Origin: Escherichia phage WPEC5
Sequence record: PV654397.1
Length of the DNA stretch: 64,000 nt
Strand: one strand, 5' to 3'
The notes beneath the pieces are model-generated. The model worked only from the letters and a program-made list of their open reading frames with translations. It ran no database searches and was not told the origin of the DNA. Shown here piece by piece: positions 49,371 to 55,843 of the stretch. A program made the translations under genes and the position numbers. The first letter of the stretch is position 1, and each line of letters starts with the position of its first letter.

Positions 49371-49520
49371 TTAAACTTCTTTCGGGTTGCGATATGTGAT
49401 AGCGTTCGGGTACATTTGTTTAATGTTATTCCATGCCTGGTTAACATTATAACCACTTGATCGAATCAGTTGGTTATTACCGACACCTTGAAACACTACT
49501 TCAAATAAGAATTCTTTCAT
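49371..49520 (-). CDS. Small ORF (49 aa), translationally coupled
   Basis: ATG overlaps the TGA of the upstream gene (ATGA); below the track length cutoff. Confidence 0.35.
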   Translation of the reverse strand: MKEFLFEVVFQGVGNNQLIRSSGYNVNQAWNNIKQMYPNAITYRNPKEV

Positions 49521-49690
49521 GCTTTCACCTCTCGATCTGCTTTGCCTTTACGCCAGGCTGTTGCTAATTGTTCGCGTTGCCATAAGTCGAGTGATACGTA
49601 AAGTTTTGCATTATCACCCTTCGGATATTCGCCAGTAGTACCAATCCGATAAAACAGATCTTTCAGTACTGTTAATTCTACCTGGACCAT
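49517..49690 (-). CDS. Hypothetical small protein
   Basis: Start moved to internal Met (MVQVELT). Confidence 0.5.
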   Translation of the reverse strand: MVQVELTVLKDLFYRIGTTGEYPKGDNAKLYVSLDLWQREQLATAWRKGKADREVKA

Positions 49691-49776
49691 TATACTTTCC
49701 TCTTTGTTCGGAGGGGAACTATTCCCCTTCCGATATAAAACATTATACACTTTATTCAGTACTGTGCAAGTACTTT

Positions 49777-49989
49777 TTAATCTTTCAGCCAATGATCCTG
49801 AATGAATTTTTCACCGGAACCTTGCTGCATTGATTGTAACAGACGTTCGCGATGAGCGGCGGCGAATTGCTCAGTACTATGCGTTACACCTGGTTGATAT
49901 CTGGATTCACCATTTGGGGCGATGTATTGTACATCCCACGGTTTTTCGTTAGTATCAGACCATTTACGAACGATTAGTTGACCTTGCAT
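49777..49989 (-). CDS. Hypothetical small protein
   Basis: Minus ORF preceded by a GGGGAGAATCATTTCTCCCC hairpin. Confidence 0.5.
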   Translation of the reverse strand: MQGQLIVRKWSDTNEKPWDVQYIAPNGESRYQPGVTHSTEQFAAAHRERLLQSMQQGSGEKFIQDHWLKD

Positions 49990-50062
49990 TTTTCTTTCCT
50001 CTTAGTGGGGAGAATCATTTCTCCCCTTCATGTAAACTATTATACAGTACTGGATTGCATTG

Positions 50063-50359
50063 TCAATATTTTATTACTTCTTCGTATAATTTATCTAGTA
50101 CTTCGTATATTTCATTTAATGCACTTGATTTAAAAGCTGATAAGCTATACCCTTCATCTTTTAAAAATTTAATAAATTCAGTTGATGACGTGAATCCGAT
50201 CGTTTCATGTGGGAATGAAAAATCAAACGTTCCTTGCATTACGCATTTAAATTCATCAGGTGAAAACGTGTTACCTTTTTCCCGTCGCATAGTGAAAAAT
50301 GTAACACCTGGAATAAACTTAAGCTGTTCCCGTGATTCAACTTCAATAACTGTTTTCAT
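50063..50359 (-). CDS. Hypothetical small protein
   Basis: Minus ORF with promoter, hairpin and AGAGG Shine-Dalgarno upstream. Confidence 0.55.
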   Translation of the reverse strand: MKTVIEVESREQLKFIPGVTFFTMRREKGNTFSPDEFKCVMQGTFDFSFPHETIGFTSSTEFIKFLKDEGYSLSAFKSSALNEIYEVLDKLYEEVIKY

Positions 50360-50374
50360 ATATTACCTCTTAGT

Positions 50375-50434
50375 GGGGAGAATCATTTCTCCCCTTCATG
50401 TAAACTATTATACAGTACTATAATCTATTGTCAA
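50375..50434 (-). promoter_or_regulatory. Promoter-hairpin cassette (TTGACA, 16-nt spacer, TATAAT, hairpin)
   Basis: Minus strand -35 at 50429-50434, -10 at 50407-50412, hairpin GGGGAGAAtcatTTCTCCCC at 50375-50394. Confidence 0.55.
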
Positions 50435-50442
50435 ATACTTTT

Positions 50443-50631
50443 TTACAGTTTATGAATTAATTCTTTATCTAAGCGATAGCGTACATTATTAATGGTAACA
50501 GCATTATTTTTAATGCTACGCTGTACGGGTCCACCAGCAATAACAAACGTTGCTTTATTGCCCCGAACAATGATAGCACTTCCAGGATTACCGAAATCAT
50601 CTTGTACTAAAATACTTGATAAGTTTTCCAT
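50443..50631 (-). CDS. Hypothetical small protein
   Basis: Minus ORF. Confidence 0.5.
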   Translation of the reverse strand: MENLSSILVQDDFGNPGSAIIVRGNKATFVIAGGPVQRSIKNNAVTINNVRYRLDKELIHKL

Positions 50632-50711
50632 TTTTTTATTTCCTCTTAGTAGGGGAAGATGTTTCCCCTTGATGCAAGTACTATAACAGTACTGAAAACT
50701 AAATGCAAGTA

Positions 50712-51068
50712 CTATGATAAAATCATGATAGGATATTCACTATCTATCAATACCTCGAATCCGAAACCTTCGTACCATTCTTTAAGATTAAAGGCGTTAT
50801 CTTCTCCCGTATCGCATTCTAAGATGATACAATCTGAATCATCTGCGGCATCAATAAAGGCATTCATTAATTCGTTACCTTCACCATTGCCCCGACTATC
50901 AGGATCAACATAAAGAGAATCAATAAACGCTACACGGTCATAATCAAGATCCGGTGCAATGATTCCACGTTTAACAAACCAGTACTGCAATTGTGCTACT
51001 TTGCCCTGTACCTGATAACCAGTGATCTCGCCATTGTCAGTAGTACGCGTGATATGTTGTATTCCCAT
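50712..51068 (-). CDS. GNAT-family acetyltransferase-like protein
   Basis: LYVDPDSRGNGEGNELM resembles the GNAT acetyl-CoA-binding motif; C-terminal WYEGFGFE. Confidence 0.45.
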   Translation of the reverse strand: MGIQHITRTTDNGEITGYQVQGKVAQLQYWFVKRGIIAPDLDYDRVAFIDSLYVDPDSRGNGEGNELMNAFIDAADDSDCIILECDTGEDNAFNLKEWYEGFGFEVLIDSEYPIMILS

Positions 51069-51131
51069 GATTACTATCCTCAGTTAAGATATAAAACATT
51101 ATACACTATCTTTCAGTACTGTCAATACTTT

Positions 51132-53761: not shown

Positions 53762-53847
53762 TTTGTTTCTCCTGTTATTGGGGAGAATCATTTCTCCCCT
53801 CTATGTAAAACATTATACGCGTTTAAAAACTAATTGCAAGTATTATT

Positions 53848-54099
53848 TTAAACGTTGTATTTTAAACTTTGTGCGACTAATTTCGCACGGTCAATCATAT
53901 TCTGCCATTTTTGGATCTCTTCTGGTAGAAAACGATATTCACCAATTACAATAGTGATACACTGGTCAGCCTTGTCGATGTATGTGGTATCAATCTCTAC
54001 TTGAACGGGTACACGTTCGCCGTACTCAGTCCCTGGGATAATGCAATCATTATCATAAGTTACAGTAGTAGCAGTGTCTTTGATTAAAATTGTTTCCAT
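53848..54099 (-). CDS. Hypothetical small protein
   Basis: Minus ORF. Confidence 0.5.
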   Translation of the reverse strand: METILIKDTATTVTYDNDCIIPGTEYGERVPVQVEIDTTYIDKADQCITIVIGEYRFLPEEIQKWQNMIDRAKLVAQSLKYNV

Positions 54100-54397
54100 T
54101 ATACTTTCCTCGTTAGGTGTAAGGGGAACGTTTTCCCCTTCATGTAAACTATTATACAGTACTAAAAACTAATTGCAAGTACTATTTTTTAGATTTACGC
54201 AAACTTTCTACCATCTCAGGAGTAAGGCCCGGCGGGTAGGAAACTACTTCATCAACGAAACGTAAAGGGAATACCCCAGCGAAAGGTGAACGTGCTTTCT
54301 TAGTATTACTCTTTTTTGATGCTTTCATTTCATATTCCTTAATTAGTGGGGAGAATCATTTCTCCCCTTCATGTAAAACATTATACGCGTTTAAAAA

Positions 54398-54607
54398 CTA
54401 ATTGCAAGTACTATTTGAAAGTAAATGCTCATACGCTACATTAACTACGTTTTCAATAACCGACTGTACAGAAAGATCCCCCACGTCCTGGCTATAGTAG
54501 AAATCGCTTACAGTGGTGTCATCGTATGCAAATACTTTACCAGGTACTGCATCAATCACATACATATTAACCTTTAAGATGTCGATCTTATCCTGTACAG
54601 TAAGCAT
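54398..54607 (-). CDS. Hypothetical small protein
   Basis: Minus ORF. Confidence 0.5.
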   Translation of the reverse strand: MLTVQDKIDILKVNMYVIDAVPGKVFAYDDTTVSDFYYSQDVGDLSVQSVIENVVNVAYEHLLSNSTCN

Positions 54608-54612
54608 ATTAA

Positions 54613-54885
54613 TTAACCTTTTAAGTACTGGCTTAAGTAGTCTTGTTGATCTTCGGTGATTGCAGCCATCTTCCCTAGTACTGGATTAATGATATAATCC
54701 CCTGTAACGTCCTGTAACGCATTCTCAGGCGGTTTAACGGCTGGGGTAGCCATAGCCATTGCCTGGACTTGTTCGACGCTGTAACGCTCATAAAGGCGGC
54801 ATTCTTCCGGTGTTAACATAGCATCAATGCGTTTCATCGGTTTAATGATGCTTTCGATCTCATTCAGTACTTGATTAACGTTCAT
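54613..54885 (-). CDS. Hypothetical small protein
   Basis: Minus ORF. Confidence 0.5.
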   Translation of the reverse strand: MNVNQVLNEIESIIKPMKRIDAMLTPEECRLYERYSVEQVQAMAMATPAVKPPENALQDVTGDYIINPVLGKMAAITEDQQDYLSQYLKG

Positions 54886-54936
54886 GGTATAATCCCCAAT
54901 ATAAGCGGCCTAAATCGACCGCTAACGATGTTTTGA

Positions 54937-55206
54937 TTAATAGGTGTATGGTTGACGTTCAAACAATGATTGCACGTTGTACGCCCCACTAATGGGCTTT
55001 GCTGGCAAATCGATTTTATATTGTTCACGCTTAAAGATAATAAAACGGCAATTGTTTTTAACATCAAAATTGATTGAACGTTCCAGGAGTTTACCATCGT
55101 GCACAAATACAAGATAACCGCTCGCTACTTGTTTTGTAGTACTGGTTGCAACCATAGACCGACGAACATGAGTACCTGCATCGATTAAAGTACTGATATT
55201 TTTCAT
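54937..55206 (-). CDS. Hypothetical small protein
   Basis: AAGAGGA Shine-Dalgarno upstream of the ATG; preferred over the overlapping 54882..55112. Confidence 0.5.
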   Translation of the reverse strand: MKNISTLIDAGTHVRRSMVATSTTKQVASGYLVFVHDGKLLERSINFDVKNNCRFIIFKREQYKIDLPAKPISGAYNVQSLFERQPYTY

Positions 55207-55286
55207 TATACGATCCTCTTAAGTTAATTTAATTTCTTTCCCCTATGCAGACACTATATCAAAGTATCTGCATAAAGTAAAGCTAA

Positions 55287-55610
55287 TTAAAGATCTTTTT
55301 TGCGTTTAACATTCTGTACAGTACAATGCAACGGGATATTAAGATCATTGCACAAACGAGTAAGGGAGGTTTCATCAGTATTAAGCCCGTCTACTGATTC
55401 CTTTAAGAGAGATAACGCCGTTTGTTGATATGCATCTTCATAGCCATAAGTAAATGATTCAACCGCCAGATCATTCAAACCGTTATCCAGTTCGACGCTT
55501 ACATGACAAGAATGATAAGTATTGCCATATGAATCAGTCCAACGTTTACCGTCAACATTGATTGCACGGATTGCAGCCAGGGAAACGGTGTTAATGATAG
55601 TTTTAGCCAT
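55287..55610 (-). CDS. Hypothetical protein (paralog of 48088..48411)
   Basis: Shared motifs with the 48.1-kb gene. Confidence 0.55.
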   Translation of the reverse strand: MAKTIINTVSLAAIRAINVDGKRWTDSYGNTYHSCHVSVELDNGLNDLAVESFTYGYEDAYQQTALSLLKESVDGLNTDETSLTRLCNDLNIPLHCTVQNVKRKKDL

Positions 55611-55699
55611 TTTTGTATTCCTTAAATTAATATGTTGTCTTGATAAAATCTATTATGCCAGTACTATCAAACTATGTCAATAGTACTGTGATAATATTT

Positions 55700-55843
55700 T
55701 TACTTACTTTTTTCTTTCTTTATTGCTTCCACCTGGTCGGCCCATTCTTTACCCCATACTTGTAAATTATAATGGTACTGGCAAAGAGCAACTCCCCGCT
55801 TTAAACCCGTAATAGATTTCTGACCACATTGACAAGTTTTCAT
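55700..55843 (-). CDS. Small Cys-rich ORF (47 aa), possible zinc-binding
   Basis: MKTCQCGQ...CQYH pattern; below the track cutoff. Confidence 0.35.
   Translation of the reverse strand: MKTCQCGQKSITGLKRGVALCQYHYNLQVWGKEWADQVEAIKKEKSK

Follow-up and report, generated by a model that had tools for sequence, protein, structure and literature searches.

The window analysed here, a 64,000-nucleotide (nt) stretch of Escherichia phage WPEC5 (PV654397.1), contains between positions 49371 and 55843 a number of open reading frames (ORFs) shorter than 60 amino acids (aa), and the question raised by this locus is whether these mini-ORFs are genes and, if so, what kind of genes they are. A sequence-only reading of the window had listed five examples as unannotated ORFs filling gaps between longer ones. 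All five exist, all are on the minus strand, and all were found in the ORF listing. Four of the coordinate pairs given for them were exact, namely m1 at 49371..49520 (49 aa), m2 at 52023..52166 (47 aa), m4 at 53379..53522 (47 aa), and m5 at 55700..55843 (47 aa). The remaining one, m3, had been given as 52257..52434, which is short by 2 nt; position 52434 is the G of the ATG, and the ORF (59 aa) runs to 52436. Judged by comparison with related phages, the five mini-ORFs are real small protein genes under purifying selection, and at least four more genes of 29–50 aa nearby are likewise genuine. This follows from the placement of promoters and Shine-Dalgarno (SD) sequences, codon usage that agrees with the genes around them, orthologues that have remained intact, and an excess of synonymous substitutions. 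The mini-ORFs form the low end of a continuous range of 47–203 aa behind the same promoters and are no special class.

The presence of an ORF is insignificant by itself because ORFs of such size are abundant in this DNA. The 47–58-kb interval contains 104 ORFs of 30 aa or more, and 42–64 kb has 46 plus-strand ORFs of 40–60 aa. Codon scores were trained on the 42 long ORFs of the window. The in-frame scores of the five mini-genes were 0.18–0.47 bits/codon, compared with 0.20–0.45 for the neighbouring genes of 60–130 aa. Spurious plus-strand ORFs topped out at 0.136 bits/codon, so that all five mini-genes lie above them, and every other frame was negative. For the substitution analysis, 10 relatives were compared and distinct substitutions were counted. 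Full-length orthologues of the five mini-genes were intact in 6–10 of the 10 relatives, with no stop gain in any. Synonymous and non-synonymous substitutions numbered 8 and 1 in m1 (omega 0.03, p = 1.6e-5; 7 full-length intact orthologues), 12 and 2 in m2 (omega 0.05, p = 1e-6; 10/10 intact), 10 and 2 in m3 (omega 0.05, p = 5e-6; 10/10 intact), 4 and 2 in m4 (omega 0.13, p = 0.02; 6 full-length intact), and 17 and 7 in m5 (omega 0.09, p < 1e-6). A second allele of m4, at 72–74% identity, differs by an in-frame 6-nt indel.

Shifted frames of the mini-genes gave omega >1. The ORFs antisense to m1 and m5 each gave omega 0.87, the former with a stop gain, and the plus-strand ORF 53570..53833 gave omega 1.36. 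A 33-aa ORF at 53268..53369 (-) showed 0 synonymous versus 13 non-synonymous substitutions and a stop gain. A chance origin of the mini-ORFs, as open frames that happen to lie in non-coding spacers or untranslated regions between real genes and make no functional protein, is effectively refuted by the comparative data. That explanation draws on the frequency of 40–60-aa ORFs in this AT-rich DNA, including the 46 on the non-coding strand in 42–64 kb. Against it, the synonymous excess is confined to the proposed frame while omega is about 1 or higher in the shifted and antisense controls, stop gains are absent, the codon scores exceed those of every spurious ORF, an SD sequence lies at the right distance, and other phage genera have homologues of equal length with 51–85% identity.

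The signals around the genes are regular. Every plausible gene in 47–58 kb is on the minus strand, and a scan of that strand gave about 45 promoters that follow the pattern TTG(A/C)..-16/17-TATAAT in 42–64 kb and very few elsewhere; 9 promoters within 47–58 kb are perfect 12/12 matches. A typical unit starts with an A-rich tract holding the stop codon of the previous gene, followed by TTGACA or TTGCAA, 16 nt, TATAAT, about 5 nt, and ACAT. A GGGGAGAA-ATGA-TTCTCCCC stem-loop then begins 10–14 nt after the -10 box and is followed by the SD sequence and the ATG. Units carry 1–3 small genes, sometimes ended by an intrinsic terminator, and the array is one-directional. About half of the units have the GGGG...CCCC stem-loop, among them the unit of m5 and those of the m1 and m4 operons (7–8-bp perfect stems); the m2 and m3 units lack it.

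The description of the mini-ORFs as occupying cassettes with a promoter and hairpin therefore fits m5 only, as m2 and m3 have a promoter without a hairpin and m1 and m4 are distal operon genes. The monocistronic m5 is preceded by a promoter and stem-loop at 55861..55920 (-), made up of TTGCAA-16-TATAAT at 55893..55920 and GGGGAGAA-ATGG-TTCTCCCC at 55861..55880. m2, also monocistronic, has a perfect TTGACA-16-TATAAT promoter at 52211..52238 (-) and is followed at 51991..52016 (-) by a terminator-like hairpin, AGCCCAC...GTGGGCT, whose stem recurs in the terminators at 56611..56632 and 57347..57363. The promoter of the monocistronic m3 is TTGACA-17-CATAAT with TG at 52471..52499 (-). m1 is the second, distal gene of a two-gene operon, and its ATG overlaps the stop of the upstream gene (ATGA), as the sequence-only reading had noticed. 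That partner gene, at 49517..49690 (-), encodes 57 aa from the ATG after its SD sequence and is annotated as gp299 in phage 121Q. The promoter and 5' stem-loop of this operon lie at 49709..49769 (-), with TTGCAC-16-TATAAT at 49742..49769 and the stem-loop at 49709..49732. Directly 3' of m1, a 12-bp terminator-like hairpin at 49332..49359 (-) overlaps a promoter-like site, TTGACT-17-TATTAT. m4 is the third gene of an operon x3-x4-m4, and its start overlaps the preceding stop (TAAATG). The operon promoter and stem-loop occupy 53780..53839 (-), with TTGCAA-16-TATAAT at 53812..53839 and GGGGAGAA-ATGA-TTCTCCCC at 53780..53799, and a 12-bp terminator-like hairpin follows m4 at 53349..53376 (-).

Scoring of the ribosome-binding sites, which had been proposed as a check on the mini-ORFs, favoured four of the five. 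Anti-SD duplex energies were -7.1 kcal/mol for m1, -5.3 for m2, -6.1 for m3, and -5.4 for m5, while that of m4 was weak at -2.8. For 14 neighbouring genes the range was -3.4 to -7.1, and the mean over 486 ATGs in 42–64 kb was -2.5. The weak SD sequence of m4 together with its TAAATG start/stop overlap fits translational coupling.

Further small genes are interspersed with these five. x1 at 54182..54328 (-; 48 aa) has its own promoter and hairpin and an SD energy of -6.1 kcal/mol, and is annotated in relatives (omega 0.29, p = 0.054; 6 intact orthologues). x2 at 56226..56378 (-; 50 aa; omega 0.05, p = 0.0015) lies just beyond the range covered by the sequence-only reading. x3 at 53609..53761 (-; 50 aa; omega 0.15, p = 3e-4) is the first gene of the m4 operon and belongs to phrog_7119. 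x4 at 53523..53612 (-), encoding a hydrophobic 29-aa product, sits between x3 and m4 with ATGA and TAAATG overlaps (omega 0.20, p = 0.004; 10/10 intact) and is annotated in fEgEco12 (g022), WPEC3, and ELP-22. x5 at 51389..51535 (-; 48 aa from an uncertain TTG start; omega 0.15, p = 8e-5) is upstream of and abuts a DksA-like gene and is annotated as 121Q gp293. x1, x2, x4, and x5 were not among the ORFs listed earlier.

An ATG is present within the loop of the GGGGAGAA-ATGA-TTCTCCCC hairpin and, where it is in frame, ORF finders and some gene callers lengthen the protein by about 10 residues (MILPNNRRNK..., MVLPTTRKLK...). Such over-extension sites are found at 53762..53791 and 55844..55873, and the cases are a 60-aa ORF at 53609..53791 and the 57-aa versions of m5 (P0001 and P0003). 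Homologues in other phage genera begin at the downstream ATG and not at the ATG of the hairpin loop. The 60-aa form of x3 starting from the loop ATG at 53791 is probably over-extended.

The description of the mini-ORFs as unannotated does not hold as a general statement, because all five are annotated in 121Q, fEgEco12, and vB_Ec-M-J and four match PHROG families; it is true only under the 60-aa cutoff that was applied in making it and for some public records. The RefSeq entry of 121Q lists all five as hypothetical proteins (m1 gp300, m2 gp291, m3 gp290, m4 gp287, and m5 gp280), fEgEco12 has them as g036, g027, g026, g023, and g015 in the same order, and vB_Ec-M-J annotates all five orthologues. 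Turkey3, WPEC3, and UE-S1 annotate those mini-genes that are present in the stretches examined. Full-length PHROG matches, in which protein and profile were both covered entirely, were obtained for m1 (phrog_37188, E = 5e-39), m2 (phrog_34103, E = 4e-37), m3 (phrog_9374, E = 9e-37), and m4 (phrog_29913, E = 1e-21). No PHROG family matched m5, which is 91.5% identical to 121Q gp280. The five are thus already catalogued in GenBank, RefSeq, and PHROGs and are ordinary small phage genes. The gaps are in individual records: m4 has no feature in Ecwhy_1, EC.P1, slurp01, and CMSTMSU, m5 has none in EC.P1 and CMSTMSU, and the m1 homologue has none in the RaK2 RefSeq record. In ELP-22 and SD-15_S21 the plus-strand ORF antisense to m1 (49308..49460, +) is annotated as a coding sequence (CDS) in place of m1. 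The 33-aa ORF 53268..53369 (-), which lies on a repeated element described below (element A), is a CDS in ELP-22, WPEC3, and SD-15_S21. Both annotations look spurious, given substitution patterns that suggest neutral evolution or worse.

Orthologues of the mini-genes across the relatives have 72–100% amino-acid identity (tblastn) and match in length, order, and operon structure, and the gene order is conserved in 121Q, Turkey3, fEgEco12, vB_Ec-M-J, and WPEC3. Outside this group, homologues of m1 with 51–53% identity and 48–49 aa occur in the Klebsiella RaK2-type phages RaK2 and Muenster (Alcyoneusvirus), in the latter within the terminal repeat. Homologues of m2 with 67% identity are found in Salmonella phage SE_PL and Klebsiella phage fENko-Kae01, and the identical m2 protein is on 142 contigs. 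For m3, 33 protein clusters with 68–97% identity, nearly all of 57–62 aa, were recovered from coliphage contigs of about 350 kb and of 136–153 kb. m5 is present in Justusliebigvirus (EmilieFrey bas61_0121, 82% identity) and, at 51% identity, in the Casjensviridae Aeromonas phage 13AC503A, where the ORF is unannotated; the length of m5 is 47–53 aa across Asteriusvirus, Justusliebigvirus, and the Aeromonas phage. m4 is in only 23 records, versus 40–44 for the other mini-genes.

Two product names in the relatives look doubtful. The fEgEco12 orthologue of m2 (g027, 47 aa; L017 3078..3221) is named 'tail fiber protein', a name that has passed into UniRef, and EcMJ_024 of vB_Ec-M-J (113 aa; L013 10562..10903), the orthologue of 52827..53168 by gene order and size, is named 'DNA ligase'.

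The 49–56-kb stretch was compared with phage records using megablast, and of the 82 records that match, nearly all are Asteriusvirus jumbo coliphages of the 121Q/PBECO4 group. The top match is Escherichia phage Turkey3, with 95.4% identity and 83% query coverage. By nucleotide identity the window is that of an Asteriusvirus-type jumbo coliphage of this group. Records of Campylobacter (n = 5), Acinetobacter (n = 1), and Erwinia (n = 1) phages were also among the megablast matches to 49000–56000; these could reflect mislabelled hosts, contamination, or common cassette sequence.

From 64000 down to about 42340, the window is collinear with positions 1–21525 of vB_Ec-M-J, annotated there as a direct terminal repeat. 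Window position 64000 corresponds to base 1, the left genome end, of vB_Ec-M-J, and the end of the repeat maps to about 42340. The architecture of the window changes at the same place, about 42 kb: above it promoters are dense and G+C is 0.38–0.40, and below it operon-like, packed genes of 150–280 aa have G+C of 0.29–0.36. The fEgEco12 orthologues lie at 7.3–13.5 kb, inside a 20,993-bp terminal repeat that was confirmed by restriction digests (PMC13070987), and Sharanji and Muenster have comparable terminal repeats of about 20 kb. The mini-ORF region thus corresponds to a terminal repeat of about 21 kb in close relatives and, by extension from them, would be part of one in the phage of the window. 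No tRNA genes were found in the window, and Rfam gave nothing for the window at gathering thresholds, with only a chance mir-12 match at 49050..49400.

The array differs between relatives in whole cassettes. Of the alignment ends against the 10 relatives, 45/63 fall in promoter/hairpin intervals, which make up 21.6% of the sequence (p = 4e-17), and the same is true of 15/23 distinct breakpoints (p = 9e-6). vB_Ec-M-J, for example, has neither the x2 cassette nor the genes at 53848..54099 (83 aa) and 50063..50359 (98 aa), and it carries one cassette that the window lacks. Whole promoter-to-promoter units are gained, lost, or replaced between relatives. The frequent rearrangement at the level of cassettes would favour an origin of the mini-ORFs as truncated remnants of longer genes, cut by recombination between repeated promoter cassettes, and some members of the m5 family (defined by the profile search below) elsewhere have 100–223 aa. 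This origin is nevertheless very improbable, as the mini-genes are under purifying selection and start, stop, and length are kept in distant phages (m3 at 59 aa in nearly all 33 clusters, m1 at 48–49 aa, and m5 at 47–53 aa). The m5 family itself has a median length of 69 aa, with 72 members of at most 70 aa.

This organisation resembles the promoter-early stem-loop (PeSL) cassettes of the T4-type phages RB49/phi1, PST, and nt-1 (Arbiol et al. 2010, PMC2839356; Comeau et al. 2014, PMC4122927). Both have strong sigma70-like promoters and an AT-rich upstream tract with the stop codon of the previous gene, and both stand in front of small ORFans in a variable region, with indels and replacements bounded by the motifs. 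The adjacent GGGG...CCCC stem-loop of the PeSLs is found here in some units, not in those of m2 and m3. The differences are that the PeSL set was defined in T4-type myoviruses whereas the present array belongs to an Asteriusvirus jumbo phage and is in a direct terminal repeat, and that the stem-loop here is always 10–14 nt past the -10 box, hence within the transcript, and has no U-tract. For PeSLs, terminator activity and mini-circles were assayed with reporters and inverse PCR (PMC2839356). By analogy, the array would work like a PeSL array, but it is not filed as a member of the described PeSL set. Within the literature searched, PeSL-like cassettes had not been described for Asteriusvirus.

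Two other systems are comparable. In the host-takeover module of phage SPO1, early expression and host shut-off by small early genes have been shown (PMC6873191). Like the array described here, that module is a cluster of mostly small genes in short operons, with the promoters and ribosome-binding sites that usually accompany strong early expression, and it is located at the genome terminus or terminal redundancy. No sequence homology to the SPO1 module was found; SPO1 belongs to another phage family and has another host; and early expression and host shut-off, shown for SPO1, are only inferred here. In the RaK2-like phage vB_PcaM_CBB, RpoD-like promoters before short hypothetical genes were read as marking early host-takeover genes (PMC5259590). 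This phage is from a related jumbo-phage group, its RpoD-like promoters with UP-like elements are concentrated before short genes, and the promoter region adjoins or extends into a terminal repeat of about 22 kb (PMC5259590). Only 18 such promoters were predicted genome-wide in that phage, however, and neither stem-loops nor cassette shuffling are in PMC5259590. Relative to the 121Q genes and PHROG families, the set described here is the same gene set in another isolate, with no material difference.

Taken with these likenesses, the mini-genes very probably encode early accessory mini-proteins of the host-takeover type, carried in shuffled PeSL-like promoter/stem-loop cassettes of the Asteriusvirus terminal-repeat region. 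Host RNA polymerase would transcribe them right after DNA entry, and the 5' hairpin might stabilise or insulate the short mRNAs. By analogy, the products may be small accessory proteins whose binding partners are macromolecules of the host or the phage, with a part in host takeover or anti-defence. A host-directed early role is suggested because the terminal-repeat early regions of other phages have such a role.

Several points weigh against this explanation. The case for m4 has only 6 substitutions (p = 0.02) and a weak SD sequence. The terminal repeat is established in relatives rather than in the phage of the window. The 5' hairpins have no U-tract and could serve stability, attenuation, or recombination. 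No transcript, ribosome-footprint, or peptide data for the mini-genes were found in the searchable literature for this phage or its relatives, and expression timing and host-directed function are read from position and promoter type only. Searches of the mini-proteins against Pfam, NCBIfam, and PDB sequences gave only sub-threshold noise, so no function can be transferred; matches to Radical_SAM_N2, SUV3_C, ZNF512_C2HC, SAM_SMF, and DAPK kinases were rejected as sub-threshold.

The mini-genes could also be real genes whose products are not host-directed early effectors, which we consider unlikely; they might encode regulators of the phage itself or cofactors of structure or assembly, or be mainly selfish cargo of mobile promoter cassettes that benefits the phage little. 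Their presence is variable among close relatives (23 records for m4 against 40–44 for the others), and the cassettes behave as mobile modules. The DksA-like zinc-finger gene and the GNAT acetyltransferase gene in the array, and the fusion of one m5-family member to a ribbon-helix-helix domain, suggest regulatory content. Conversely, the terminal repeat and the host-type consensus promoters fit early expression, the strength of purifying selection points to a benefit, and virion roles are unlikely for proteins of 47–59 aa from this region. These alternatives overlap with the proposal of early accessory proteins and do not exclude it.

For m5, the sequence gives a more specific indication of biochemistry. 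The CxC...CxxH pattern that had been noticed in 55700..55843 is present as C4-x-C6-x14-C21-x2-H24, a putative zinc site, and the suggestion that it might bind zinc is strengthened by the family-wide invariance of the four candidate ligand residues. A profile of m5 was searched against 1.84 billion representatives at a threshold of E ≤ 0.001. The search returned 140 proteins, 2 of which were low-complexity false positives; clustered at 50% identity, the family comprises about 137 groups. Among 48 aligned representatives, which are 38–60% identical to m5, the only invariant columns were C4, C6, C21, H24, and G31. The pattern C-x(1-4)-C-x(11-15)-C-x2-H was found in 130/139 family matches, and the 9 exceptions include the 2 low-complexity false positives. 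Between the first two Cys there are 1–4 residues, and the spacing of C-x2-H is fixed. The signature of the family is C-x(1-4)-C-G-x-P/K-S-x-P-G-L-x2-G-x2-L-C-Q-Y-H-Y-N-x3-W-G-x-x-W-A-D.

The AlphaFold2 (AF2) model of m5 built from the 48-sequence alignment had a predicted local distance difference test (pLDDT) score of 91, compared with 72 from a shallow alignment. It has helices at 22–30 and 32–46 and a non-helical segment at residues 1–21 with a beta bridge 3/9, and C21 and H24 are at the N-terminus of helix 22–30. No fold match to this model was found among solved and viral predicted structures besides an orthologue. No model in Pfam, PHROG, or NCBIfam matches the m5 family, and no zinc-finger Pfam was above threshold. 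Likenesses to the small fingers of the treble-clef and zinc-knuckle type are predicted to include two ligands on an N-terminal knuckle C-x1-4-C and two in the first helix turn, C-x2-H; the domain is likewise very small, with the four ligand residues invariant. The difference is that m5 matches no described zinc-finger family or solved fold.

On this evidence m5 is likely to carry a C3H zinc site, and its family is unnamed. We propose that m5 is a basic (isoelectric point [pI] 9.4) C3H zinc-binding mini-domain in which a zinc knuckle is followed by two helices. It probably binds nucleic acid or a protein. In one family member the domain is joined to an N-terminal TacA1-like ribbon-helix-helix DNA-binding domain, a single hint that the role of the family may be nucleic-acid-related. 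The genomic context of the family, from a narrower alignment, consisted of 2 viral loci and 1 doubtful locus from a bacterial metagenome-assembled genome, with no informative neighbourhood.

The Cys and His residues might instead bind no zinc and form disulfides or a protein-interaction surface. Substitutions at the site speak for this: P0003, a close cluster representative of m5, has Tyr for Cys6, which also counts against the zinc site itself, and in P0115, a distant family member, Asp replaces His. The lack of a zinc-finger Pfam match above threshold points the same way. In the translation of 121Q gp280, Cys6 is retained. We regard a zinc-free m5 as quite improbable, because four ligand positions and one Gly are alone invariant in the 48 sequences, because the variable spacing of 1–4 residues between the Cys is as in zinc knuckles and the fixed C-x2-H at the N-terminus of a modelled helix is classic ligand geometry, and because disulfides are unlikely in a cytoplasmic phage protein.

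The zinc site and the cassettes may be combined in one reading, to which we give about an even chance: m5 would be an undescribed, widespread zinc-binding mini-domain that at least three unrelated phage groups encode as a free-standing early protein of about 50 aa, and PeSL-type cassette shuffling would occur outside the T4-type phages, in the terminal repeat of a jumbo Asteriusvirus.

Among the other mini-proteins, m4 is strongly basic (pI 10.5, net charge +10.5), m3 is acidic (pI 4.3), and m1 and m2 are near neutral. BLASTP gave no paralogues of the mini-proteins within the window. Comparison of m2 and x2 with hhalign revealed similarity over the C-terminal 31 residues (probability 61%, E = 8e-5), and a profile comparison of m2 with m4 gave no link. 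That m2, x2, and m4 have a helix-turn-helix-like C-terminus in common is a weak idea.

The expectation that a length cutoff would drop real genes was borne out, as a 60-aa threshold would lose these protein-coding genes. For the early regions of phages such a cutoff is set too high, a difficulty with which current phage pipelines mostly cope already. As it was stated, the finding matters little, with the orthologues already in GenBank, RefSeq, and PHROGs. The locus does supply true small genes together with true negatives, namely the antisense ORFs and the 33-aa ORF on a non-coding repeat that is annotated in some records. The m5 family, a conserved and unnamed candidate zinc finger, merits a Pfam entry. 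An obvious region in which to seek mini-proteins of host takeover or anti-defence is the Asteriusvirus terminal repeat, a PeSL-like array whose promoter-gene cassettes are shuffled.

Within this stretch, the only genes with named functions in relatives are those of a DksA/TraR-like C4 zinc-finger protein (85 aa, 51132..51389, -) and a GNAT acetyltransferase (118 aa, 50712..51068, -). Both are within the same promoter array and are plausible modulators of host transcription or metabolism.

The array also contains repeated elements without ORFs. Element A is present in at least 6 copies on the minus strand, with -35 boxes starting at 60934, 53369, 51715, 49352, 46074, and 43814. Most copies have a 12-bp terminator hairpin, AAAGGGATTGAC-TCCG-GTCAGTCCCTTT, that contains the TTGACT-17-TATTAT promoter-like site, and a conserved core, (A/G)(G/A)CCCA(C/T)AGGGTGC...TGTATCTAT, is found about 25–30 nt beyond the hairpin. 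Element A had no Rfam match, and its consensus fold was without covariation; it could be a small RNA (sRNA) or a protein-binding site. Element B has two minus-strand copies, 49108..49222 and 60603..60715, each just downstream of an element A. It consists of a consensus promoter followed by about 80 nt without an ORF (ACAUCAGGACGGGGAACG...CUCCCCUGAUAAAAUAG), with the promoter of the next gene directly after. The fold of element B is an outer stem with two hairpins, with minimum free energies of -21 and -19.4 kcal/mol and z scores of -3.2 and -1.6 for the two copies. It had no Rfam match and is a candidate phage sRNA. Finally, a paralogous pair of 107-aa genes was seen in the translations, at 48088..48411 (-) with VNRWTDSHGNTYHSCYVS and at 55287..55610 (-) with GKRWTDSYGNTYHSCHVS, each with its own promoter.

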